Source: a bacterium (GTDB lineage Bacteria; Patescibacteriota; Minisyncoccia; Minisyncoccales; Minisyncoccaceae). From it: a stretch of 64,000 nucleotides of DNA. Shown piece after piece: positions 1 through 27,297 of this stretch; position 1 is the first letter of the stretch, and each line of letters begins with the position of its first letter. The translations under genes and the position numbers were made by a program. The stretch covers positions 8,798 to 72,797 of the forward strand of contig JBFZBB010000005.1 of assembly GCA_041308625.1 (NCBI GenBank), written 5' to 3'. The notes under the pieces are model-generated. The model did not search any database, was not told the origin of the DNA, and worked only from the letters and a program-made list of their open reading frames with translations.

Positions 1-575
1 TCTCCATTAAACAATGCCCACTCTTCACATTGTCTATTATCTTCAAAAAAACAAATACCATATTGTCCTCCGTCTCCTCTTTCTTCAATGCTTAAGGTTC
101 CCCCTTTTTGTATACAGTTTTGAGAAGCAGGATTAGCTAAACCAACTCCTTGATTAATAATATTAAAAGAATTATTACTTTCATCACTTATTGGATTAGT
201 AATTGGTAAAGATTCGTAGCTATTAATCTCTAAAATATATTCTCCTGTTTTAAACATATCAGAAACTAACCAATCCTCATTTCCATCGTTATCTAAATTA
301 ATAAATAATATTGGATCAAATTCTTGACCTTCGATATTTTCGTCAACAGTATTTTTTCTAATAGTAATAGATATTTTATTTTCTGAAGAAATATTTTTAG
401 TCTCCCACTTAATGCTTACAGTTGACCCAACTGTTATTTCTTCTCCTCCATTAGGATAAAGAAGAGTAATTGATTGTTGATTATTAACCCTTGGTGTTTG
501 ATAAAAAACCACATAAGCAAGACTCAAAATTACCAACAAAGAAACACAAAGTAAAAACCATTTATTGTTTAACAT
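1..575 (-). CDS. secreted protein with a C-terminal DUF333-like Cys motif; C-terminus cut by the window edge
   Basis: Hand translation from ATG at 575: MLNNKWFLLCVSLLVILSLAYVV (signal/anchor) ... NPASQNCIQKGGTLSIEERGDGGQYGICFFEDNRQCEEWALFNGE. This matches the DUF333 pattern NPA..C...GG...G.C.F.D...C.EW. The frame stays open to position 1. The ORF is not in the supplied track because it has no stop inside the window. Confidence 0.5.
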   Translation of the reverse strand, partial: MLNNKWFLLCVSLLVILSLAYVVFYQTPRVNNQQSITLLYPNGGEEITVGSTVSIKWETKNISSENKISITIRKNTVDENIEGQEFDPILFINLDNDGNEDWLVSDMFKTGEYILEINSYESLPITNPISDESNNSFNIINQGVGLANPASQNCIQKGGTLSIEERGDGGQYGICFFEDNRQCEEWALFNG

Positions 576-690
576 ATGTTTTAAATTATTTTATTGATTT
601 AACCTTTATGTCTATATTATACCAACCCCCTAACTATTGGTCAATAAAAGGGTCTTTTCTAAATAAACAAAAAGTGATAGTATTAATTCA

Positions 691-1974
691 ATGGAAAGAA
701 CACTAATTAATCAAATATCTACACAAGAAGGAAAAAGCGCCTTAATAAAAGGTAGGGTTTTTAATATTAGAAACTTAGGAAACATTGTTTTTCTTGTTGT
801 TCAAGACTATACCGGAACAATTCAAAGCGTATTTGAAAAAGGAATAGAAGTGAAAATAGGAGATTTTGTTGTTTTGGAGGGTAAAATTAAAAAAGACGAA
901 AGAGCAAAAGGAGGATACGAAATTCAAGGAGAAAAAATAGAGGTTGTTTCTAATGTAATCGAAGAACTACCCTTTGACTTAGCAAAAAATGACTTAAACT
1001 TAAATCTTGTTACTTTGCTTGACAATAGAACTCTAGCCTTAAGACATCCAAAAGTCCAAGCTATTTTTAGGCTTTACGATATACTACTTAAAAGCTACGA
1101 AACAACAATGAGAGAAAATGATTTCATTGAAATTAAAACTCCTAAATTATTAGGAACTGCTACAGAGGGAGGAGCTAACTTCTTTAAAGTAAAATACTTT
1201 GAAAGAGAAGCAACACTAGCTCAAAGCCCTCAACTATACAAACAAATAATGGTTGGTGTTTTTGAAAGAGTCTTTGAAATAGGTTCTGTTTTTAGAGCGG
1301 AACCACATTTTACAACAAGACACGTAAATGAATATATTGGTCTAGACGCTGAAATGGGATTCATTGAAGACTATAAAGATATAACCAAAGCATTAAACCA
1401 GGTTATTAAAAAAATGTTTGAAATAATAGAAAAAGAAGGAAAAGAATATTTAAAAGAATATTGTATTGATTCTCTTCAAGTACCAAATGAAATTCCTCAA
1501 ATTAAATTAAGTGAATTGAAAAAAATAATAAAAGACGAATATAATTACGAAATTCCTGAAGATACTGATATTGATCCAAAAGGAGAAGAATTAGCAGGAC
1601 AATACGCAAAAGAAAAATTCGATTCTGATTTTCTTTTTATTACTCATTATCCTTGGGAGTATAGACCATTTTATACAATGACAAATCCTGAAAATTCAGA
1701 AGAAACTCTTGGTTTTGATTTGTTATACAAGGGACTAGAAATTGCTACTGGAGGACAAAGAATTCACAGCTACAACGAATTAATTGCTAATATGAAAAAA
1801 AAGAAAATTAAACCTGATGGACTTGAATTCTATTTAGATACTTTTAAATATGCTATTCCTCCTCATGGTGGTTGGGGCATGGGATCTGAAAGAATCATAA
1901 AACAACTTTTAAACTTAAGTAGTATCAAGGAGGCAATATTATTTCCTCGCGACGTTAAAAGATTGTGTCCTTAA
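691..1974 (+). CDS. aspS: aspartyl-tRNA synthetase, short archaeal/type-2 form (class IIb)
   Basis: 427 aa with an N-terminal OB fold. Contains QSPQLYKQ, class II motif 2 FRAEPH and motif 3 GGWGMGSERI. Confidence 0.85.
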   Translation: MERTLINQISTQEGKSALIKGRVFNIRNLGNIVFLVVQDYTGTIQSVFEKGIEVKIGDFVVLEGKIKKDERAKGGYEIQGEKIEVVSNVIEELPFDLAKNDLNLNLVTLLDNRTLALRHPKVQAIFRLYDILLKSYETTMRENDFIEIKTPKLLGTATEGGANFFKVKYFEREATLAQSPQLYKQIMVGVFERVFEIGSVFRAEPHFTTRHVNEYIGLDAEMGFIEDYKDITKALNQVIKKMFEIIEKEGKEYLKEYCIDSLQVPNEIPQIKLSELKKIIKDEYNYEIPEDTDIDPKGEELAGQYAKEKFDSDFLFITHYPWEYRPFYTMTNPENSEETLGFDLLYKGLEIATGGQRIHSYNELIANMKKKKIKPDGLEFYLDTFKYAIPPHGGWGMGSERIIKQLLNLSSIKEAILFPRDVKRLCP

Positions 1975-1978
1975 AACT

Positions 1979-2001
1979 AAACTCCCTTTTGGGGAGTTTT
2001 T
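1979..2001 (+). terminator. rho-independent terminator after aspS
   Basis: Hairpin aaactccc-tttt-ggggagttt followed by a T run, 5 nt after the aspS stop. Confidence 0.6.
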
Positions 2002-2080
2002 AGTTTGACAAATAATAAAAACTATTCTAAATCGTATATGGCAGTATAAATTGCCGCTCTTTGAAAATTAGGTGGAAAAA

Positions 2081-2935
2081 ATGAAGAAAATTGCTAGTAT
2101 TTTGATTATTGCTTGCTTTTGTTGCATAGTTTGTGTAACAGCAACATCATTTGTGCCAAAAAGCATTGACAAGGAACAGTTATTAGAACAAAGAATGAGT
2201 GCTGCTAAAAACGCATCTCTCAATCATGAGCAGTTTATAAAACTAGCTCTCCTTCAAAAGGATACTCAAATCCGAATAATTAATTATCTGGCAGAGAATC
2301 CATTCCGACCAGACTACTACTTAGTCAGTGAAGTCAATCCTCAACCATATATCGATAAAACACTATCAGAAGATAGAGATATCTGGTTTGTCTTTTACAA
2401 AAACAAGTGGCGCATTGATTGGGACGCAGCAAGAAGACCTCTTAAATATATTGGTATTCATAGTTCAGAGAACATGACCCCGGAAGAAATAAATGATGTG
2501 TACCGAGGACAATATGTTTGGAGATATTCTGTTGATGGTGATCCTTATGTTAAAGGATTAGAGCCCCATTCAGGACACATTGTTAATGGAAAAGAAGTGT
2601 ATTATCCATTCCACTGGATGATTTATCCTGACGGAACCGTAGCAAAAGGTCTTGATTCTTCCTTGGTCCGAACAAAAGAAGGACTTTGTCCTTATCAGGT
2701 TGCTTGGAGTTTAGGCAACTGGGAAGCTAATTGCGAAAGTTTTTCCATGACCTTTATCCTAGAAAATCCTGAAACCGACGTCCCAACAGAAGCTCAAATT
2801 GCTTCAGCAAATGTCATAATTGACAACGTCAAAAGCATTGTCCCTACCGCAGTTGTTGCACCTCATTACCAATTCAATTCACAAACGAATTGTCCTGGCT
2901 GGAGCTTCCAAGAATGGGGCCAAAAAATTCATTAA
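2081..2935 (+). CDS. secreted N-acetylmuramoyl-L-alanine amidase-like protein (Amidase_2/PGRP-like)
   Basis: Signal peptide MKKIASILIIACFCCIVCVTA. Contains IGIHSSE and a C-terminal APHYQFNSQTNCPG, which resembles the H...T.CPG zinc-ligand motif. AGGTGG RBS at 2070-2075. ATG at 2081 is preferred over the track's GTG at 2072. Confidence 0.5.
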   Translation: MKKIASILIIACFCCIVCVTATSFVPKSIDKEQLLEQRMSAAKNASLNHEQFIKLALLQKDTQIRIINYLAENPFRPDYYLVSEVNPQPYIDKTLSEDRDIWFVFYKNKWRIDWDAARRPLKYIGIHSSENMTPEEINDVYRGQYVWRYSVDGDPYVKGLEPHSGHIVNGKEVYYPFHWMIYPDGTVAKGLDSSLVRTKEGLCPYQVAWSLGNWEANCESFSMTFILENPETDVPTEAQIASANVIIDNVKSIVPTAVVAPHYQFNSQTNCPGWSFQEWGQKIH

Positions 2936-2950
2936 ATTTTTCACTGATTT

Positions 2951-2978
2951 TAAAAATACCACATAGTGGTATTTTATA
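2951..2978. terminator. bidirectional hairpin terminator between convergent genes
   Basis: Hairpin aataccac-ata-gtggtatt flanked by an A run and a T run. Confidence 0.5.
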
Positions 2979-2998
2979 TTTGAATTTTAAATAAAAAA

Positions 2999-4462
2999 TT
3001 ATTCTTCTAAATCTAGAGTCCTATCAATCCTAATTTTACTTACAAATTCTGGAACGTGACTTACTAAAATCATTGCTCCATTGTATTTGTTTAATGCTTC
3101 AGCAATAATCGGAATGTGACGAAAATTAATATGATTTGTTGGTTCATCTAAAATAAGAAGGCCTGGTTTTTGTAAAACAAGCATTGCAAAAGAAACTAAG
3201 CCTTTTTGACCTTCTGACAAATTCCCTATTTTTGTATTCATTACATCATTGGTAATAAGAAAACCTGCTGCTACACTTCTTAATATTTTTTCTGATTGTT
3301 GTTCAGCTGCTTTTGAAAGAGACTGATAAACAGTATCTTCAAAATTTAAAGTAGAAAAATCTTGACGATAATAACCAATTTTTACATTAGAAGCAATTTT
3401 AGTTCCCTCTGCTTGGTTTCTTGCGATTGATTCTAAAAGAGTGCTTTTACCAATACCATTTGGGCCTTGGAGCAAAAGGTGTTCGTTTCTTCTTATTTCT
3501 ATGTTTGTCTTTTTTTGTACTTCTTTGTGATTTTTTATGGCCTTAAAAGAAGATATCTGAACAATGACACCGGAAATATCTTTTTGTGAATCAATAATAA
3601 ATGATCTTATTGTTCTATCTTCTTTGCGAGTATCAACTTTTTCTTCTTCAAGTTCATCTGCTTTTTCTCTCATTTTCTTTGCAACTAAACGTAACTTACC
3701 TCCTTTGTTTGCGAAAAAGTTTGCTTTATCTTTGTTGTCCTGAATTTCTTTTGCTAGTTGTGCATTTTTTCTGTTTTCTTTTTCTTGACGAATAGCAATT
3801 TGTTCTCTTACATAAAAATAATTTCCTACATATTGCTCTATTTTTTTAGTAAATACATCTAAATACAAAACTCCGTTCGTAAAACTATTTAAAAATTCTG
3901 CATCATGAGAAATCACGATACAGGTTTTTTTGTAATCAATTAAAAACTTTGTAAGATGTTCTATTCCTTCTTTATCTAAATTATTTGTTGGTTCATCAAG
4001 TAAAAGCAAATCTGGATTCTGAATTAATGCTGAAGCAAGAAGAAGTCTAGCTTGTTGTCCTCCTGAGAAAGATTTAATTATTTTATCATGAGAAGCTTTA
4101 AGATGAACAACATCTAAAATATTATCTATTCTTAAATCTATATCGTAAACTTTTTTTACTGAACACTTTGATAGAGCTTTTTCAAAAAACTCTTTAACAG
4201 TTAAATCAAGCTCTTCTCTAGGAATGACTTGTCGAGAAATAGCAATAGAAATACCTTTTGCAATATTAATTGTTCCACCTTCTGGTAAAAAATCTTTAGT
4301 AATGAGATTAAATATAGTGGTTTTACCAGCTCCATTTTGTCCCATGATAGTGGTCTTTGTTCCAGAAAGAATAGAAAAATCAACCTCATTTAAAAGAGGC
4401 TTATTTTCTATATACCCAAAAGATACTTTTTTAAAACTAAGGATTGATTCTTCTTTAGCCAT
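2999..4462 (-). CDS. ABC-F family ATPase (two tandem ABC domains, no transmembrane domain)
   Basis: Walker A GQNGAGKTT and GPNGIGKST. Signature motifs LSGGQQARL and LSEGQKG. Walker B LLLLDEPTN and LLILDEPTN. A charged linker lies between the two domains. Confidence 0.8.
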   Translation of the reverse strand: MAKEESILSFKKVSFGYIENKPLLNEVDFSILSGTKTTIMGQNGAGKTTIFNLITKDFLPEGGTINIAKGISIAISRQVIPREELDLTVKEFFEKALSKCSVKKVYDIDLRIDNILDVVHLKASHDKIIKSFSGGQQARLLLASALIQNPDLLLLDEPTNNLDKEGIEHLTKFLIDYKKTCIVISHDAEFLNSFTNGVLYLDVFTKKIEQYVGNYFYVREQIAIRQEKENRKNAQLAKEIQDNKDKANFFANKGGKLRLVAKKMREKADELEEEKVDTRKEDRTIRSFIIDSQKDISGVIVQISSFKAIKNHKEVQKKTNIEIRRNEHLLLQGPNGIGKSTLLESIARNQAEGTKIASNVKIGYYRQDFSTLNFEDTVYQSLSKAAEQQSEKILRSVAAGFLITNDVMNTKIGNLSEGQKGLVSFAMLVLQKPGLLILDEPTNHINFRHIPIIAEALNKYNGAMILVSHVPEFVSKIRIDRTLDLEE

Positions 4463-4490
4463 AGTCTAGAGAATACTACATTTTAAGAAG

Positions 4491-5303
4491 CTATTCAATC
4501 CCCTGTCTTATTAAAACAGAATAATCAGGATTATCACCAATTTGTCTTGATTTATCGGTAATATTATATTTAATCATTGCTTCTTCAAGGTTTAAACTAG
4601 TATTTATTAAATTATTATCAAAAGCTAAATCATCAGAATAACCAGTTAATAATAATTTCCAAGAATATGGTATTGGTTTAAATAAAACAGTATTAAAATG
4701 ATCAAAAACAAGGCTCGTACAATTAGCAGTAACAGTATTATACCATTTAGGATTTTCTCTTAAATTGTTTGCTTCCTCTAGCATGCCCACTAACAAATCT
4801 ATTCCTTGCTTTTGAGAAAGAGTCATTGGATAAAGAATTATTTCATTTTTACGAATATTGGTCCTCATTAAAATTGCGTCTCTTTCATCAGATACAACAT
4901 AAATCAAAGGATATGATCTAAAAAGCCCAACCCAAGAATTATATATCTGAGACTTATTTGTTCTAGCTTCAATGCTAATTGTTAGAAAAATGTTATCTTC
5001 GAATTCAAAACTTAAAAAGCTATGAGCCACATTATCAAAAGGCTCAAAAATATACCAAACTTTTTTTAATTCATCTAAATTATATGTTTTATCATAATAA
5101 GCAGGATATATTTCTGTTTCATCTTTTCCATAACGAAAATTCCTAATATTTTTAATTGTTATTTTGTTTTCATTAAATTCAGAGATTGATAAAACAGACA
5201 ATGGTTCTGGCCAATTATCATCAATTAAAGGTTTTTTAAAAAAATGAAAACAAAAAAAGATTAATAAAAGAGTGACAATAAGTACTATTATTTTTTTAAA
5301 CAT
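4491..5303 (-). CDS. DUF4105 (Lnb N-terminal-like) membrane-anchored protein
   Basis: N-terminal TM helix, NIRNFRY motif, and SIEARTNKSQIYNSWVGLFRSYPLIYVVSDERDAILMRTN, which is typical of DUF4105. Confidence 0.55.
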   Translation of the reverse strand: MFKKIIVLIVTLLLIFFCFHFFKKPLIDDNWPEPLSVLSISEFNENKITIKNIRNFRYGKDETEIYPAYYDKTYNLDELKKVWYIFEPFDNVAHSFLSFEFEDNIFLTISIEARTNKSQIYNSWVGLFRSYPLIYVVSDERDAILMRTNIRKNEIILYPMTLSQKQGIDLLVGMLEEANNLRENPKWYNTVTANCTSLVFDHFNTVLFKPIPYSWKLLLTGYSDDLAFDNNLINTSLNLEEAMIKYNITDKSRQIGDNPDYSVLIRQGIE

Positions 5304-7211: not shown

Positions 7212-8075
7212 TTACTCTTTGTTTCCAGCTAAATTATTGATTAGTATAGCAGTTCTTTGATTATATTTTTGACTATTAATTTCATGATTAACCAATAATT
7301 TATTTAATCCAGAATAATAGGTTTGTTGAATTTGAGAAGAAGGGACAGCTTTATCGTATAGACGAACTTCGTCAATCAAACCAAGAAAACCTTCATTAGG
7401 GACAGCGATATCAGCTATACCAATATATAAACTGTTGGTAACAGAAGAAACAATTGATCCGCTTAATGTCGTCTGTGTCGCAACTACCCCATTAACATGT
7501 ATTTTCATATTTCCAACCCCTCCGTCTTTATTATAAGTACCAACAACATGATTCCAATTATTAAATGGTAAATCATTAGGAGTTATTAAAGTGCCAACAC
7601 CAGATAAAGCAAACCTAAACTTATTATCACCTTGGTTTCCACTTATCACATATCTCCAATATTTACTGATAATATTTGGGTAAAGTTTTGTTTGATTGGT
7701 TGAAGTTTTAATCCATGCTTCCATTGTAATACTTTCCGTGATAATCTGTTCATCTTGATGAGAAACAGTAATATAGTCTCCACTAGAATCAAAACTGAGA
7801 CAGGACCCATAAACACAGTCATTAGATGCTAAAGCATTGGTTATTATGCCATTATTTAAGCCCCAGCTATCATTAGCGTTTCCATCAAGCTTCCACTCTG
7901 CAACCAAATTCATCAATAGCGAATTCCTCAAAGAATTAGAAAAAGCTTTGCTTTTAGTCATGTTAGTATTAATTGTAAAAGAATTCATTGAAACAATAAT
8001 AAAAGCAGAAAGAATACCAACTACTACTATTACAATTAAAATCTCGATCAAAGTAAATGCTAATTTTTTATTCAT
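7212..8075 (-). CDS. type IV pilin-like protein with LamG/concanavalin-like domain
   Basis: Prepilin class III signal MNKKLAFTLIEILIVIVVVGILSAF. C-terminal LamG-type motif LIDEVRLYDKAVPSSQI. Confidence 0.75.
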   Translation of the reverse strand: MNKKLAFTLIEILIVIVVVGILSAFIIVSMNSFTINTNMTKSKAFSNSLRNSLLMNLVAEWKLDGNANDSWGLNNGIITNALASNDCVYGSCLSFDSSGDYITVSHQDEQIITESITMEAWIKTSTNQTKLYPNIISKYWRYVISGNQGDNKFRFALSGVGTLITPNDLPFNNWNHVVGTYNKDGGVGNMKIHVNGVVATQTTLSGSIVSSVTNSLYIGIADIAVPNEGFLGLIDEVRLYDKAVPSSQIQQTYYSGLNKLLVNHEINSQKYNQRTAILINNLAGNKE

Positions 8076-8124
8076 TAATTTATTATACTAAAAATTAAAA
8101 AAGTGCCAAGTATTTAATAAACAT

Positions 8125-9219
8125 CTATTCTTTTATTTTTTTAAAATCTTTTTTTGCTTTTTTAATAAACTTTCCGAAATCATGATCTTTTTCTCTTTTT
8201 TCAAAATCAGACATTTCATAAAAATCAGATTCTTTTTTAATGTTTGTGTAGTTGTCATATTTAGATTTATCCAATCTTCCCTCTTTTACTGCTTTTAGTA
8301 CTTCACAACCAGGTTCACTAATATGCGTACAGTCGTTGTACTTACAGTTTTTTCCAAGCTCATAAATTTCATCAAATAAATCATCTATACCAACCTTAAT
8401 ATCTGTAACTCCTACCTCTCTTATTCCAGGATTATCTATCACTATACCTCCATTTTCTAAAAAATACATCTCTCTTCTTGTGGTAACATGCTTACCTCTA
8501 TCACTATACTTACTTATATCTCCAGTTTTAATTAAATCAGTTCCAATCAACTTATTAATTAAAGATGACTTACCGACCCCAGAAGAACCAAGAAAACAAT
8601 ATGTTTTTCCTTTTTCAATATATGCCCTTAGCTCATCTAGTCCTTTTTCTTTTAATATACTAGTTAAAATAATGTCCGTATCGTTAAATCTTTCTTTAAT
8701 TTGAGAAATTATTAATTCTAATTCTTCTTTAGAAATTAAATCAATCTTATTAAGAATAATAACTGGCTTAATGCCTTGATCTTTAGTGATTGCAAAATAT
8801 CTTTCAAAACGATTAAGATTATAATCTCTATTAATTGATTCTACTATAAACGCTACATCAATATTTGCACCAATAGCTTGAACTTCTATTCTATTCTTAA
8901 TTTTGTCTTTATCTCCCTTTTTTCTTTTAATTATTGTTTTTCTAGGCAATATTGCACGAATCACAGCTTGTTCTTTATCAAGTTCTGTTATTGCAACCCA
9001 ATCTCCAACAACAGGATAGTCTTCTCTTGAAGAAGCATTAAGCATTTGTTTTCCAGTTATTCTTGCTAAAAATCTACTATTCTGATTTATTACCTCGTAT
9101 AATCCCCTATGTTCTGACACCACCCTTGCAATAGAAAATTCACCTAAATTTAATTCTTTTCTTTTAGATTCAAAAAATTCATTATATCCAAATTGTTCAA
9201 TTTTAAGTTCAGAAGACAT
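8125..9219 (-). CDS. rsgA: ribosome small-subunit-dependent GTPase A
   Basis: Circularly permuted GTPase with NKIDL, GSSGVGKSSLIN and the C-terminal zinc motif CKYNDCTHISEPGCEV. ATG at 9219 (MSSELKIEQ) is preferred over 9261. Confidence 0.85.
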   Translation of the reverse strand: MSSELKIEQFGYNEFFESKRKELNLGEFSIARVVSEHRGLYEVINQNSRFLARITGKQMLNASSREDYPVVGDWVAITELDKEQAVIRAILPRKTIIKRKKGDKDKIKNRIEVQAIGANIDVAFIVESINRDYNLNRFERYFAITKDQGIKPVIILNKIDLISKEELELIISQIKERFNDTDIILTSILKEKGLDELRAYIEKGKTYCFLGSSGVGKSSLINKLIGTDLIKTGDISKYSDRGKHVTTRREMYFLENGGIVIDNPGIREVGVTDIKVGIDDLFDEIYELGKNCKYNDCTHISEPGCEVLKAVKEGRLDKSKYDNYTNIKKESDFYEMSDFEKREKDHDFGKFIKKAKKDFKKIKE

Positions 9220-22789: not shown

Positions 22790-23230
22790 TTATTTATTAT
22801 TCTTATTAATAATTTTAAAAATATAATTTATTACTGAAGTCAATGTTAAAATTATAAAATAAAAAGCAAAGACACCAACAGATGCAAATAAAACATAAAG
22901 CATATACCAAGACTGATCAGAACCCGTTCCCCAATTACCATACCTGCTAGAAAATATATTATTAAAGCCACCCAATGTAAACAAAACTAATATTATACTT
23001 AAAAAAACATACACCATTCTAACATTAAAACCTGATGCATTTTTTTCTTCTTGTGATAAAATTAATTTTTGTTTTTTTTCTTCAAATAGAATATTTTTAT
23101 ACATAATTAAAAACATAACTACAAACGGTAGAATATTTAAAATTATTGCAAAAAGCTTATCATGTTCCCCAATTACTCCAAGTAAATTTAAAAAAAGAAT
23201 TGCATAAAATATTTCAATTATTAATTTCAT
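22790..23230 (-). CDS. hypothetical 4-TM membrane protein
   Basis: Hydrophobic ORF tightly packed in the operon. No recognised motif. Confidence 0.45.
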   Translation of the reverse strand: MKLIIEIFYAILFLNLLGVIGEHDKLFAIILNILPFVVMFLIMYKNILFEEKKQKLILSQEEKNASGFNVRMVYVFLSIILVLFTLGGFNNIFSSRYGNWGTGSDQSWYMLYVLFASVGVFAFYFIILTLTSVINYIFKIINKNNK

Positions 23231-23238
23231 ATTAATAT

Positions 23239-23937
23239 TTATCTTATTTTTATAATTTCAAATAAAAAAGAAAATTCTTTCAACACTTCTTTTAAATCTT
23301 CTTCTGGAAAGGGTTTTAAATTAGTATAAGCTGGATCAATTGTTTCTTTTTCTCCGTGAAATGTTTGTAAAAAATATTTCTTGGCTTTACCAATATCATT
23401 AGCCATTTCAACAATACTTTCTTTTGTATGAATTCCAGGAACAATAGTTGTTCTGAATTCATAATCAATTCCTGAATTTTTAATCAATCCTATGCTTTCC
23501 TTTATTTTCGAAATATCAATATTAATTCCCGTAGCCAAAGAATAATCCTTAAAACAAGATTTAACATCCATGGCAATATAGTCAAGAAGGTTTTCATCAA
23601 TCAATTCTTTTAATCTTTCGGGCAGATAACCATTTGTATCAAGTTTAATTAAATAACCTATTTTTTTAATCTCTTTAATAAAACCTTTTAAATCATTATT
23701 AATTGTTGGTTCTCCTCCACATAAAACGCAAGCATCGATCATTCCTTTTCTTTCTTTTAAAAAAGCAAAAAACTTTTTGGAATCAATTTCTGGTTGTTTT
23801 TTAATATCAACCGGCAAAACCAATTCTTTTGAATAGCAAAAAGGGCATCTAAAATTACACCCTGATAAAAATACAGTGCAAGCTATTTTTCCTGGATAAT
23901 CAACTAAAGTAACTTTTTGAAGTCCTCCGATTTTCAT
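23239..23937 (-). CDS. nrdG: anaerobic ribonucleoside-triphosphate reductase activating protein (radical SAM)
   Basis: CNFRCPFCYS (CxxxCxxC) and GGEPT. It lies immediately downstream of nrdD. Confidence 0.85.
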   Translation of the reverse strand: MKIGGLQKVTLVDYPGKIACTVFLSGCNFRCPFCYSKELVLPVDIKKQPEIDSKKFFAFLKERKGMIDACVLCGGEPTINNDLKGFIKEIKKIGYLIKLDTNGYLPERLKELIDENLLDYIAMDVKSCFKDYSLATGINIDISKIKESIGLIKNSGIDYEFRTTIVPGIHTKESIVEMANDIGKAKKYFLQTFHGEKETIDPAYTNLKPFPEEDLKEVLKEFSFLFEIIKIR

Positions 23938-24215
23938 TAACTAATTTTAAATTCTTTTCTGTCCTCAAATTCTTGTTGTTTACCTTCGTTCCATTGAGAA
24001 ACAGGTCTTAAGTAGCCAACGACACGAGAATAAACTTCTGTTTCTTGAAAATTTCTTAAGCTTTTATTAATATTAAAACATTCTGAACATTTAAAAATAT
24101 CTTTTGATTTTCCATTTTCTAGATCATATTTTAAAAAATGACCATTCAAGATCTCTCCTTTGTTATTGATCTTTATTTCCTTACCACAGTCATGACAAAA
24201 AAATTGTTGATTCAT
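23937..24215 (-). CDS. stand-alone Zn-ribbon plus glycyl-radical module, duplicate of the NrdD C-terminus (GrcA-like candidate)
   Basis: 92 aa with CHDC...CSEC, then EVYSRVVGYLRPVSQWNEGKQQEFEDRKEFK. This is 30/31 identical to the NrdD C-terminus and includes the RVxGY radical glycine. The ATG lies 1 nt after the nrdD stop, and the stop overlaps the nrdG ATG (TAATG). Confidence 0.7.
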   Translation of the reverse strand: MNQQFFCHDCGKEIKINNKGEILNGHFLKYDLENGKSKDIFKCSECFNINKSLRNFQETEVYSRVVGYLRPVSQWNEGKQQEFEDRKEFKIS

Positions 24216-24216
24216 G

Positions 24217-27200
24217 TTATTTTTTAGTAAACATTGATGGTTTAACTTTGAATTCTTTTCTATCTTTGAATTCTTGTTGCTTACCTTCGTTCCATTGAGA
24301 AACAGGTCTTAAATAGCCAACGACACGAGAGTAAACCTCACATGGTTGTTCAATTGTACATTTAGGACAGTTAAAGTGTTTTCCAGAAATATATCCATGT
24401 GTAGGACAAATTGAAAATGTAGGAGTAATAGTAATATATGGTAACCTGTTATGTTCAAATGATTTCTTAATTAATGATTTTACTGTTTCAATATCACTAA
24501 TTTCTTCTCCAATAAATATATGCTCTACTGTTCCACCAGTATATTTGCACTGTAAATCATCTTGAAGTTTTAATTCTTCAAAAATATCATCAGTATAATT
24601 CACTGGTAATTGAGTTGAATTAGTGTAATAAGGAATCTTTTTTGTTCCGGAAGTAATAATTTCTGGGTAAAGCTTTCTATCTTTTTGAGCCAAACGATAA
24701 GAAGTTGATTCTGCGGGCGTGGCCTCTAAATTGTAAATATTCCCTGTTTCTTTTTGATATTCTACTAATTTTGCTCTCATGAAGTCCATTATTTCTAAAG
24801 CAAACTGTCTTCCTTTTTTAGAACCAATATCTTCTCCAATAAAGTTTAATAATGCTTCATTCATTCCGGAAATACCAATAGTTGAAAAATGATTAGCAAA
24901 GTATTGATTCTTCGCTTTTTTAACTCCTGCTAAATAATACCTAGAATAAGGATATAATCCTTTAGAGGTATATTCTTCTATTGTTTTTCTTTTAATTTCT
25001 AAACTTTCTTTAGCAACATCCATAACTGATGCTAATCTTTCTAAAAACTCTTTCTTTGTTTTGGATAAATATCCAATCCTAGGAAGGTTAACTGTTACTA
25101 CGCCAATACTTCCAGTTAATGATCCTGATCCAAACAACCCTCCTCCACCTCTGTTAGCTAATTCACTTAAATCAAGTCTTAAACGGCAACACATTGAACG
25201 TACATCCTCTGGCTTCATGTCTGAATTCAAGTAATTAGCAAAGTAATTTATTCCATACTTAGCTGAAGCTTCAAACAATCCGTCTAGCGCTGGATCATCC
25301 CAAGGAAAATCATGAGTAATGTTAATTGTTGGAATTGGAAAAGAAAAAGGTCTTCCACTCTTATCTCCCTTAAGCATAGCTGAATAAAATGCCTTAACAA
25401 ACATTTTCATTTCTTCTTCAAATTCTCCGTAAGTTTCTTTTTGAGGAATTCCTCCAATAATAACTGGCTGTTTAGCAAAAACAGCTGAAGGCTTTAAATC
25501 TAAAGTAACGTTTGTGAAAGGACAATTTCCAGTAATAAAGACTTTTCCATTTCTTCTAGCAATAATTGTTTGATTCTCTGTTGTTGGACACCAAATCACT
25601 CCATCATATTTTACCTTTTTAACATTAGAAATATATGTTTCTCTGTGTTTTACTAATCTTAATATGTATATATCTTTTTTACCAATAGTGGGTTTTCTTG
25701 TTAAAACTGTAAAACCATATCCAGCATTAACTGCAATCATTTGTAATCCATCTAAAAGATCTGCGTCAGTTGTAGCAATCTTACAATCTTCGGTTCCATC
25801 TGCTTTAAGGTAAGTTTCTAAAAATAATTTTGATTGCCTCTCACTTAAAGACAATAATATACTAGGAACAAAATGAATATTTTCCTTACTAAACCACTGA
25901 TGAATCTTTTTTGAGCCAGAAGCATCAATTCTTAGTCTTGCCACCTCATTACCTAAAGAAGCTGAAGAATATTCAGAATAATTAAGCTTAAAATGGTTCA
26001 ACAAAGAAATAATTTCATCGTAATTTTTCTTATTTTTAACTTTGGACTGATAAATACTTACTCTATAACAAGATCTATAATTATCTCCTGGTAATTCAAT
26101 GCTTCCCTCACCAATAATCCAAGCCATCAACTTAATCTGCTCATCAGAAATTTTAGCGTCTTTCTTATTGTTAATTCCTGCAATAGGAATAATAAAAGGT
26201 GACTTCATCTTAGAAACTTCTTCAATTGACTCTAAAATATATTCTCCTTGGTTAAATTTCTTTCTTACAACTCTATGTTCAGGAGAAATTAACTGATCCT
26301 GAATTCTGTTGGTTAAATTATACATTTCACCCTTGTAGTCTCTTTTAAACATTTTCAAAACTTGTTTGTCTTCAATCGCTTCTGTTTTCAAATTAAAGGT
26401 TTTAATAGTGTCTCCAAGTTTTACTTCTTCGTAATTTTTCCACCCTTCTGGAGTTAAAACTTCGGTATCTTCTGAAATACATTGAAAACCAACTCTAGTT
26501 GGCACAGCCATATTGTATAAAAATTCTTGAATAGCTTGTTCAACTTGAGCGTAACTTAAATTATCATAACGAATAAAGGGCGCTAATAATGTATCAAAGT
26601 TAGAAAAAGAAACTGCTCCTGCTGCTTCTCCTTGAAGCGTGTACATAAAATTAACAACCTGTCCTAAAGCTGATCTAAAATGTTTTGGTGGAAATGATTC
26701 AATTTTTCCATTTACACCTCCAAAACCACGAGAAATTAAATCATATAAGTCCCATCCAACACAATAACAAGCAAGAGTATCTAAATTATGTAGATGAACA
26801 TCTCCAGATTGATTTGCTTCTCTTACTTCTTTGGGATAAATTTTATTCAACCAATATTTTTTAACAATATATGAAACTCCATAATGATTTAATCCTTGTA
26901 AAGAAAAAGTCATATTAGAGTTTTCTTGAACTTCCCAGTCTAATTTATCTAAATAATCATCAACTCTATCTACTGCTTCTTCGCTGATCTCTTCTGCTTC
27001 TCTAATTCTTCTTCTTTGTTCTCTGTAAAGTATAAAAGCTTTGGCAGCAATTGCTTCTCCTTCCAAAATTAACACCTCTTCTATGATATCTTGTATTTGT
27101 TCGACAGTAGGAAGCTCATCTTTTTTAAATCTTCTATTTAAAATTTGAAGAATTTTATCAGAAATTGCTTGTGTTTTTTTTCCGTTACCTTGTTTGGTAG

Positions 27201-27297
27201 CAGTAATAGCTTTGAAGACTGCGTTAGTGATTTTTTCTTGATTAAAATCTACAATGTCTCCATTTCTTTTTTTAATTTTGAGAATTTTATTTTCCAT
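24217..27297 (-). CDS. nrdD: anaerobic (class III) ribonucleoside-triphosphate reductase with ATP-cone, interrupted by an intein
   Basis: N-terminal ATP-cone (KIKKRNGDIVDFNQEKI), NrdD core, and C-terminal CPTH...CPKC plus SRVVGYLRP glycyl-radical motif. The protein is 1026 aa, of which 319 aa are intein. Confidence 0.9.
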   Translation of the reverse strand: MENKILKIKKRNGDIVDFNQEKITNAVFKAITATKQGNGKKTQAISDKILQILNRRFKKDELPTVEQIQDIIEEVLILEGEAIAAKAFILYREQRRRIREAEEISEEAVDRVDDYLDKLDWEVQENSNMTFSLQGLNHYGVSYIVKKYWLNKIYPKEVREANQSGDVHLHNLDTLACYCVGWDLYDLISRGFGGVNGKIESFPPKHFRSALGQVVNFMYTLQGEAAGAVSFSNFDTLLAPFIRYDNLSYAQVEQAIQEFLYNMAVPTRVGFQCISEDTEVLTPEGWKNYEEVKLGDTIKTFNLKTEAIEDKQVLKMFKRDYKGEMYNLTNRIQDQLISPEHRVVRKKFNQGEYILESIEEVSKMKSPFIIPIAGINNKKDAKISDEQIKLMAWIIGEGSIELPGDNYRSCYRVSIYQSKVKNKKNYDEIISLLNHFKLNYSEYSSASLGNEVARLRIDASGSKKIHQWFSKENIHFVPSILLSLSERQSKLFLETYLKADGTEDCKIATTDADLLDGLQMIAVNAGYGFTVLTRKPTIGKKDIYILRLVKHRETYISNVKKVKYDGVIWCPTTENQTIIARRNGKVFITGNCPFTNVTLDLKPSAVFAKQPVIIGGIPQKETYGEFEEEMKMFVKAFYSAMLKGDKSGRPFSFPIPTINITHDFPWDDPALDGLFEASAKYGINYFANYLNSDMKPEDVRSMCCRLRLDLSELANRGGGGLFGSGSLTGSIGVVTVNLPRIGYLSKTKKEFLERLASVMDVAKESLEIKRKTIEEYTSKGLYPYSRYYLAGVKKAKNQYFANHFSTIGISGMNEALLNFIGEDIGSKKGRQFALEIMDFMRAKLVEYQKETGNIYNLEATPAESTSYRLAQKDRKLYPEIITSGTKKIPYYTNSTQLPVNYTDDIFEELKLQDDLQCKYTGGTVEHIFIGEEISDIETVKSLIKKSFEHNRLPYITITPTFSICPTHGYISGKHFNCPKCTIEQPCEVYSRVVGYLRPVSQWNEGKQQEFKDRKEFKVKPSMFTKK
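25525..26481 (-). mobile_element. intein with LAGLIDADG homing-endonuclease domain inside NrdD (residues 273-591)
   Basis: Block A is CISEDTEVLTPEGW (Cys1, codon TGT at 26481-26479). Block B is LISPEH. LAGLIDADG motifs are KLMAWIIGEGS and LFLETYLKADGT. Blocks F/G are YDGVIWCPTTENQTIIARRNGKVFITGN, followed by +1 Cys (AAT TGT at 25527-25522). The exteins join as VGFQ/CPFTNVTL. Confidence 0.8.

Follow-up and report, generated by a model that had tools for sequence, protein, structure and literature searches.

A stand-alone NrdD-type glycyl-radical domain encoded between nrdD and nrdG: a candidate spare part for class III ribonucleotide reductase

Introduction

Why would a genome that encodes a complete anaerobic ribonucleotide reductase (RNR) also encode, as a separate small protein, a second copy of the part of that enzyme that carries its radical? 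The question is raised by a 64-kb window (the whole stretch of DNA analyzed here, from contig JBFZBB010000005.1 of a Minisyncoccaceae bacterium). There, an open reading frame (ORF) of 92 amino acids (aa) stands between nrdD, which encodes the catalytic subunit of a class III RNR, and nrdG, which encodes its radical-SAM activase. Oxygen, of course, cuts glycyl radical enzymes irreversibly at their radical glycine. The original prediction, made from the DNA of the window, held that the small ORF might encode a replacement radical domain for an NrdD damaged in this way, activated by NrdG. As far as sequence data go, the comparative genomics described here backs this idea, to which we assign a probability of roughly 0.6.

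Strict anaerobes with very small genomes may have no source of DNA precursors other than class III RNR; should it be lost, replication stops. Spare parts for glycyl radical enzymes are known for pyruvate formate-lyase (PFL) only, according to reviews from 2021 and June 2026 that leave the other enzymes of the class open (PMC8683613, PMC13450708). Just two PFL spare parts have been validated, and others may exist (Andorfer et al., 2021). Our literature search turned up no account of an NrdD radical domain that is split or stands alone, in agreement with the original view that nothing of the kind had been described for class III RNR.

A duplicated radical domain in the window

The three genes lie on the minus strand in the order nrdD, small ORF, nrdG, and are tightly packed. 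Their features are as follows.

24217..27297, minus strand: nrdD, class III RNR catalytic subunit, 1026 aa including an intein (Pfam ATP-cone, E=3.4e-18; NRDD PF13597, E=4.2e-186)
24358..24408, minus strand: zinc ribbon of NrdD, CPTH...CPKC (C964, H967, C977, C980), placed by the NrdD alignment
24247..24339, minus strand: glycyl-radical tail of NrdD, EVYSRVVGYLRPVSQWNEGKQQEFKDRKEFK, with radical Gly994 (codon 24316-24318); upstream copy of a direct repeat
23937..24215, minus strand: 92-aa stand-alone NrdD-type glycyl-radical domain protein, a candidate autonomous radical cofactor or spare part, from a conserved family and with a match to the NRDD profile
24078..24197, minus strand: zinc ribbon of the small protein, with four Cys (C7, C10, C43, C46) and an insert longer than that of the NrdD ribbon
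23946..24038, minus strand: glycyl-radical tail of the small protein, EVYSRVVGYLRPVSQWNEGKQQEFEDRKEFK, with Gly67 (codon 24015-24017) as candidate radical residue; gene-conversion tract, and the repeat's downstream copy
23239..23937, minus strand: nrdG, radical-SAM activase, 232 aa (Pfam Radical_SAM, E=8.6e-22; Fer4_12, E=1.4e-9)

The NrdD of the window has a complete C-terminal glycyl-radical domain of its own, and its invariant cysteines are present, including those of the finger-loop motif MCCRLRL (C703 and C704 in full-length numbering). It ends in CPTH...CPKC..EVYSRVVGYLRPVSQWNEGKQQEFKDRKEFK (written out, ...CPTHGYISGKHFNCPKCTIEQPCEVYSRVVGYLRPVSQWNEGKQQEFKDRKEFKVKPSMFTKK). In the NrdD alignment, the ribbon cysteine columns are invariant, while the fourth ligand position is mostly His and in one case Asp. 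The small ORF opens with an ATG 1 nucleotide (nt) past the nrdD stop, in a frame different from that of nrdD, and its stop overlaps the ATG of nrdG (23937) in the sequence TAATG. Its product reads MNQQFFCHDCGKE...FKCSECFN...ETEVYSRVVGYLRPVSQWNEGKQQEFEDRKEFKIS, which is to say a ribbon CHDC...CSEC followed by the tail EVYSRVVGYLRPVSQWNEGKQQEFEDRKEFK.

These coordinates stand as originally predicted, as do the CxxC...CxxC ribbon of the small ORF against CPTH...CPKC in NrdD and the identity of the two tails at 30 of 31 residues. The DNA repeat that underlies the tails, first estimated by hand at about 91 nt with about 9 mismatches, proves to be 97 nt long at 90% identity (23942-24038 versus 24243-24339), with its copies 301 nt apart. 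This is far above chance for a window of 64 kb. A repeat search of the window found no similarity between the small ORF and nrdD outside these 97 nt; the N-terminal halves have diverged, as had been stated.

What, then, has been duplicated? Pfam places the small ORF at positions 510-562 of the 562-position NRDD model (E=2.6e-13), and its motif aligns with residues 612-644 of T. maritima NrdD (4COI), spanning the RIVGY glycyl-radical loop. The small protein has the C-terminal zinc site and the RVxGY loop of NrdD, and lacks the barrel and the finger-loop region. A study of the P. copri enzyme defines the radical domain of NrdD as a structural zinc site, a buried glycine loop and a C-terminal tail, and finds it mobile (PMC11226230). 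Judged by its sequence, the small protein is exactly this module.

Such small radical domains are familiar from GrcA/YfiD, the spare part of PFL. No match to PF01228 (Gly_radical, the PFL type) was found in the small ORF at E<=0.1, where NRDD PF13597 is the sole domain match. An hhalign comparison of the family alignment with an E. coli GrcA sequence gave a probability of 0.9% over 7 aligned residues. A profile search of the PDB sequences returned one weak match only, to the tail of T. maritima NrdD (E=0.12). By these comparisons the small protein falls outside the GrcA/YfiD family and is a module derived from NrdD.

A large family under purifying selection

A search of 5.8 billion proteins delivered 755 homologs of the small protein. 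Every one of the best 120 is a stand-alone protein of 76-110 aa; Patescibacteria (Paceibacteria, Minisyncoccales) are the main source, and MNSN_06970, from the cultured Minisyncoccus archaeiphilus, is among them. When 1.84 billion cluster representatives were searched with a profile, 516 clusters matched (50% identity, E<=1e-10), of which the best 150 are all 42-159 aa long. In public sources, the members are labeled "anaerobic ribonucleoside-triphosphate reductase" or "hypothetical." Neither NCBIfam nor PHROGs has a dedicated family for the small protein, and both hold only NrdD-tail matches below threshold; against TIGR02487, for example, it scores 41.9 bits, where the cut-off is 326.

The four cysteines and the glycine are invariant in an alignment of 39 diverse members (39/39), as is much of the motif EVYSRVVGYxRPxxQW..GK. 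A strict test that demanded two CxxC pairs and the Gly motif was passed by all but one of the 78 locus-derived homologs (77/78); the exception has the two CxxC pairs and an RSVGY variant of the loop. Synonymous sites are saturated between orthologs. Where the ratio of nonsynonymous to synonymous substitution (dN/dS) can be estimated, it lies at 0.02-0.2 in the ribbon and at 0-0.06 in the tail, and by this measure the family is under strong purifying selection.

The gene order is conserved as well. The complete M. archaeiphilus genome (AP038758.1) has ftsA-ftsZ-nrdD-small gene-nrdG-rhomboid-comEC, with synteny as in the window. All 24 of the close relatives from metagenomes (24/24) keep the small ORF intact between a tail-bearing nrdD and nrdG, and an nrdD with its tail is present upstream of the small gene in L169, L170 and L190. 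(Here and below, such identifiers denote homologous loci from scans of genomes, IMG/VR and JGI metagenomes.) The arrangement thus recurs in relatives, and the small gene is intact in these 24 and has low dN/dS between orthologs, two points left for checking when the locus was first described. An assembly artefact, the third, is excluded: the three genes are arranged alike in over 35 independent assemblies, among them the complete genome of M. archaeiphilus.

One further feature is found in part of the family. Small ORFs that end in a pair of cysteines (CC, CxC or CxxC; for example ...KPATCC or ...ACGC) make up 20 of 143 locus-derived homologs, and nearly all small proteins of Moranbacteria type end in this way (L008, L010, L011, L012, L013, L018, L021, L024, L025, L002, L005, L007, L009, L195 and L198 are examples). 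The small protein of the window has no such pair. Among NrdD tails, 26 of 27 have no Cys at the end and none of the 27 has a pair. These terminal pairs resemble the redox-active C-terminal pairs of class I and class II RNRs, and the NrdDs concerned carry the double-Cys finger loop MCCRLRL.

Four genomic settings

The scans covered one genome per GTDB species, IMG/VR and the JGI metagenomes, and loci were classified by phmmer with the NrdD, small protein and NrdG of the window as queries. Four settings emerged.

Setting A: nrdD with its tail, small gene, nrdG; the window and about 35 others
Setting B: nrdD without the Gly tail, small gene, nrdG; L013, L016, L017, L020, L024, L029, L031 and L205
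Setting C: small gene, with neither nrdD nor nrdG in the 4-5 kb around it; seen in Patescibacteria, in many Desulfobacterota-like metagenome-assembled genomes (MAGs) and in one archaeal-labeled mobile region
Setting D: small gene by itself on viral contigs, about 45 of them in IMG/VR

Wherever nrdD precedes the small gene and the contig reaches far enough, nrdG comes after it. The same phyla also have many plain nrdD-nrdG pairs that lack a small gene (L038-L080; Patescibacteria, Desulfobacterota). One such pair, L055 (nrdD 2982-5153, nrdG from 5353), is nested in the small-gene clade of the NrdD tree, as sister to the tail-less L031. Recombination between the direct-repeat tails, deleting the small gene and restoring a single complete nrdD, could explain this case.

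The labels of several MAGs (L003, L007, L018, L025, L029 and L076, as Saccharibacteria, Bdellovibrionales or Gammaproteobacteria) clash with sequences that are Paceibacteria- or Moranbacteria-like. These are probably automated mis-labels, and taxon names from record titles are therefore not relied on here.

NrdDs that have lost their own tail

The hypothesis that the small protein works in trans would be more compelling if some natural NrdD were observed to depend on it. Setting B supplies candidates. Here, in at least eight loci, NrdD ends or decays directly after the zinc ribbon, approximately where oxygen cleavage at the radical glycine would cut. The protein stops with CPKCKAEQSSTVYLKVVMAD in L024, with CPKCVIEQKTEVFLKVGEEELREKQEKIIKK in L031 and with CPKCVVNQEVEVVRKVCC in L017; a further example reads CPKCVIEQKTEVFLKV... 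A six-frame translation of the seven loci from the genome scan (all but L205) found one Gly motif per locus, and this lies in the small ORF.

The remainder of these enzymes is well preserved. Across 27 tail-bearing NrdDs, 175 columns of the core and 15 of the tail are invariant. The same seven tail-less NrdDs keep 172-175 of the 175 core columns, including all six invariant cysteines, and 0-2 of the 15 tail columns. In terms of the Pfam model, the NrdD of L024 covers NRDD positions 1-536, against 510-562 for the small protein of the window. In a neighbor-joining tree of NrdD cores, forms with and without a tail are intermingled within a Moranbacteria-like clade; this, with L205 coming from another lineage, implies that the tail was lost several times.

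The possibility that the tail-less NrdDs are frameshift artefacts was considered and rejected. The DNA of L024 is clean, with a decayed remnant of the tail followed by an AT-rich spacer and no frameshift, and the small ORF has a ribbon of its own.

The simplest reading of setting B is that the small protein provides the radical glycine in trans; with it available, the tail of NrdD itself would have become dispensable. In these loci neither gene is complete alone, as one would demand of a two-gene RNR. This does not hold for the window, where NrdD has its Gly994 tail.

Gene conversion between the two tails

The high identity of the two tails had been attributed to either a recent duplication or ongoing gene conversion. 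These alternatives were separated by comparing the 90-nt tails of 32 setting A genomes. Within one genome, the NrdD tail and the small-protein tail share 88% of their nucleotides, and 72% at third positions; orthologous tails from different genomes share 74%, and 45% at third positions. For 40 of the 64 tails the nearest neighbor is the paralog in the same genome, and in four loci (L037, L175, L176 and L181) the paralogous tails are 97-99% identical.

The N-terminal ribbons of the small proteins tell the history of the remainder of the gene. They are orthologous across deeply diverged genomes, which means that the duplication is old and that the 90% identity in the window reflects episodic gene conversion. 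Thus, recent duplication is set aside, gene conversion is retained, and it is recurrent conversion that underlies the identity of the tails. Such conversion would keep the detachable domain compatible with the barrel and the activase to which the resident tail is fitted.

In the clade of L011, L012 and L023, orthologous tails are closer than paralogous ones, and both tails are still conserved. With no sign of recent conversion, this conservation implies selection on both copies.

Oxidative-stress operons and phages

In the Patescibacteria of setting C, the start of the orphan gene typically overlaps the 3' end of a Fur-family gene. Downstream of it lie genes for rubrerythrin, desulfoferrodoxin, Fe/Mn superoxide dismutase, an AhpC-type peroxiredoxin, an encapsulated-ferritin-like rubrerythrin or hemerythrin. 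This arrangement is seen in L002, L004, L006, L007, L009, L085, L086/L087 and L088, and a context look-up found it in all three members picked from the second subgroup (3/3). The neighborhood is as expected for a protein that handles oxygen damage, and points to such a role for this one. The Desulfobacterota-like orphans have an N-terminal extension and no obvious operon partner.

In L086 and L087, a reverse transcriptase (RVT_1, at about 7860-8940) lies some 2.5 kb downstream of the Fur-small gene-rubrerythrin-superoxide dismutase operon, and a bAvd-like gene adjoins it in L087. This region looks like a diversity-generating retroelement.

Phage genes are present on all five viral contigs inspected, of about 45. 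The small gene adjoins those for the portal protein and the head protease/major head protein in L089, and stands between a PmgB-like head morphogenesis protein and the tape measure in L121. Its neighbors elsewhere are a head-closure protein (L114), an SbcC-like nuclease (L118) and a DNA helicase (L123). No nrdD or nrdG was found within 5 kb of the small gene on the viral contigs. On one of these, L129, a 110-aa small gene (2989-3321) is followed by an ORF of 217 aa (3318-3971) with two weak partial matches to the family; the latter may be a tandem or fused duplicate.

What the small protein might do

The proposed mechanism takes the 92-aa ORF to encode the C-terminal radical domain of a class III RNR in full, with zinc ribbon, glycine loop and tail. 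NrdG, encoded by the overlapping downstream gene, would recognize the module made of ribbon and loop, and take a hydrogen from Gly67. The activated module would then place its glycine loop in the barrel of an NrdD core that lacks a functional loop of its own, and the radical would pass to the finger-loop cysteine of that core. The receiving core would be an oxygen-cleaved NrdD in the organism of the window, and a genetically truncated NrdD in setting B. The NrdD of the window keeps its own tail; its small protein is therefore, by analogy with GrcA/YfiD, most likely a cheap back-up that restores oxygen-cleaved NrdD. In related lineages, the small protein would have turned into the sole radical domain. 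The retained Cys4 ribbon fits a role in recognition by the activase. Work by Logan and colleagues from 2003 reportedly found that mutating the zinc-site cysteines of T4 NrdD impairs radical generation.

Several points weigh against this reading. An oxygen-cleaved or tail-less NrdD would retain its own zinc ribbon, and the small protein would bring a second one to the complex. Gene conversion could by itself keep the tails alike. The small gene of the window is embedded in the nrdD-nrdG operon, so it is probably co-expressed with NrdD rather than induced by stress. Structure prediction gives little help: an AlphaFold2 monomer model, built with the 39-sequence alignment, has a mean predicted confidence (pLDDT) of 65.6, near 75 in the ribbon and below 50 in the glycine loop, and Foldseek against the PDB returned only zinc-ribbon ribosomal proteins (E>0.07), which is uninformative. 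Low confidence is, of course, expected for a domain that folds into a partner.

In a different explanation, the small protein is the obligate, primary radical subunit of a two-component class III RNR, and the tail of NrdD is redundant or on its way to being lost. The tail-less lineages indicate that an NrdD can have the small protein as its only radical domain, and the small ORF of the window is co-operonic and translationally coupled with nrdD and nrdG. Further, a free domain should reach the activase more easily than a buried one, which must exit the barrel; its mobility is described in PMC11226230. The tail of NrdD is, however, strictly conserved in the 32 genomes that have both copies, including L011, L012 and L023, where no recent conversion is evident and conservation must therefore stem from selection on both copies. 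Most related Patescibacteria and Desulfobacterota manage with nrdD and nrdG and no small gene (L038-L080), and the stress operons and the lone carriage by phages fit an auxiliary or rescue role better. We consider an obligate subunit unlikely, while holding it the strongest of the competing explanations. A regulator or decoy is less probable still. Here, a substrate mimic would bind NrdG or plug the barrel of NrdD, and thereby tune or delay radical installation; in one variant it protects NrdG or NrdD under oxygen without restoring catalysis, and phages would use it to manipulate host deoxynucleoside triphosphate (dNTP) synthesis. The small protein does hold exactly the module that the activase recognizes, and stress-operon and phage contexts are also compatible with a protective or inhibitory role. 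A decoy cannot, however, explain why the tail-less NrdD cores remain constrained, since such enzymes would have no radical source. Nor does it lead one to expect a radical glycine that is invariant, with its neighbors, over hundreds of clusters, or a tail homogenized with that of the resident NrdD, as expected if the same barrel must be fitted.

The most prosaic explanation is that the small ORF is a by-product without function: an assembly mis-join, the remnant of a recent tandem duplication or a frameshifted piece of nrdD. A 97-nt direct repeat with copies 301 nt apart is typical of mis-assembly or of a fresh duplication, and genuine frameshift fragments of nrdD do exist in some MAGs (L050, L068 and L069). 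These pieces of broken nrdD were rejected as family members; they have no extra N-terminal CxxC ribbon, which all members of the family have. With the arrangement present in over 35 independent assemblies, and also in the finished genome of a cultured organism, with an N-terminal ribbon that is unrelated in sequence to the ribbon region of NrdD and orthologous across genomes, and with strong purifying selection on the gene, this explanation is very improbable. The view that the small protein is an NrdG-activated radical domain that acts in trans, as a spare part for oxygen-cleaved NrdD, remains the one we favor.

A wider statement can be made with slightly less assurance, at a little better than even odds. 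It holds that a large, unrecognized family serves as the autonomous, NrdD-type, trans-acting radical cofactor of class III RNR. The family would be deployed in nrdD-nrdG operons or PerR-type regulons in Patescibacteria, as orphans in Desulfobacterota-like genomes, and by phages that keep host dNTP synthesis running. It would fully replace the enzyme's own domain in several lineages, and be the first spare-part system outside PFL.

Comparison with known systems

GrcA/YfiD of E. coli (IPR011140, PF01228) is the obvious comparison. It too is a small stand-alone radical domain with an RVxGY glycine, close in sequence to the C-terminus of its parent enzyme; the small protein is likewise a stand-alone near-copy (92 aa, 30/31 residues, an invariant Gly in RVVGY). 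Both proteins are larger than the piece that oxygen removes: YfiD overlaps a beta-strand that is retained in PFL (PMC13450708), and the small protein duplicates the retained zinc ribbon. By analogy, the small protein would be activated by the activase of the parent and replace a cleaved domain. The differences are also considerable. The parent is PFL in one case and class III RNR in the other, and the sequence families are distinct. GrcA/YfiD has a disordered N-terminus, where the small protein has a Cys4 zinc ribbon. Unlike GrcA/YfiD, the small gene often lies between the genes for enzyme and activase, its tail undergoes gene conversion with that of the enzyme, and its product seems to be the sole radical domain in some lineages.

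A phage precedent exists in Y06I (vs.6) of T4, again a phage-borne, stand-alone glycyl-radical domain with no gene for its cognate enzyme nearby. Y06I is of the PFL type, with the Gly_radical Pfam domain (PMC1524935), and rescues oxygen-cleaved host PFL, according to work cited in PMC8683613. The phage proteins described here, unlike Y06I, are putative radical domains of the NrdD type (PF13597).

The tail-less lineages also resemble the split RNRs, NrdJa/NrdJb of Pseudomonas aeruginosa and NrdA of phage Aeh1, in dividing an RNR over two adjacent genes. The NrdA of Aeh1 was split by insertion of a homing endonuclease. The NrdJ split is a single gene cut in two (PMC9669993). Those systems have no duplicated part, whereas here a duplicated radical domain would first coexist with the original, and the copy in the enzyme decay later. 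Further, the piece that is separated here would carry the radical cofactor itself.

The small protein is, of course, homologous to the C-terminal domain that NrdD itself carries (T4, 1H7A; T. maritima, 4COI/4U3E; P. copri), with which it shares the second CxxC, the glycine loop and the tail. The small protein differs from it in being free-standing, in its Cys4 rather than Cys-His-Cys-Cys ligands, and in a ribbon insert of about 32 rather than 13 residues. It has no catalytic barrel, and it scores far below every NCBIfam cut-off for NrdD.

These comparisons suggest that the spare-part principle extends to class III RNR, with a different domain family. New here are gene conversion with the parent, enzymes that naturally come in two pieces, oxidative-stress operons and carriage by phages. 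With this locus and family, the question of whether spare parts exist beyond PFL becomes directly testable. The cultured M. archaeiphilus carries the same operon, and two-piece, stress-operon and phage versions also exist. Together they offer a natural system in which to study the recognition of a free radical domain by an activase, and the docking of such a domain in the barrel. The family may also help to explain how Patescibacteria tolerate transient oxygen.

The intein and other features of the region

The nrdD of the window is interrupted by one further element.

25525..26478, minus strand: intein within NrdD (aa 274-591, 318 aa; FQ|CISEDTE...FITGN|CPF), delimited by intein-free NrdDs, which skip residues 273-592 in phmmer

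Its Pfam Intein_splicing match is only weak, and no endonuclease domain was identified in it. An intein occupies the same NrdD site in L076 and L051, and is absent from the closest relatives, L169 and M. archaeiphilus (L082); from this absence, the intein looks mobile. A viral NrdD, that of L138 (ORF 3-5129), is 1708 aa long, with several insertions, one of which is homologous to the intein of the window. In L205 (ORF 13-3297), a large insertion interrupts NrdD elsewhere, between query residues 706 and 698. It seems that NrdD is a hotspot for inteins in these groups. In two viral loci, L099 (1504-4179) and L110 (533-2686), big ORFs directly upstream of the small gene match only the intein part of the query (approximately 273-600), which suggests related inteins in other phage proteins.

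Lastly, a hydrophobic ORF of 146 aa with no Pfam match (22790-23230, minus strand) lies between nrdG and the rhomboid gene of the window. In M. archaeiphilus, nrdG is followed directly by the rhomboid gene; relative to that genome, this ORF is thus an insertion.

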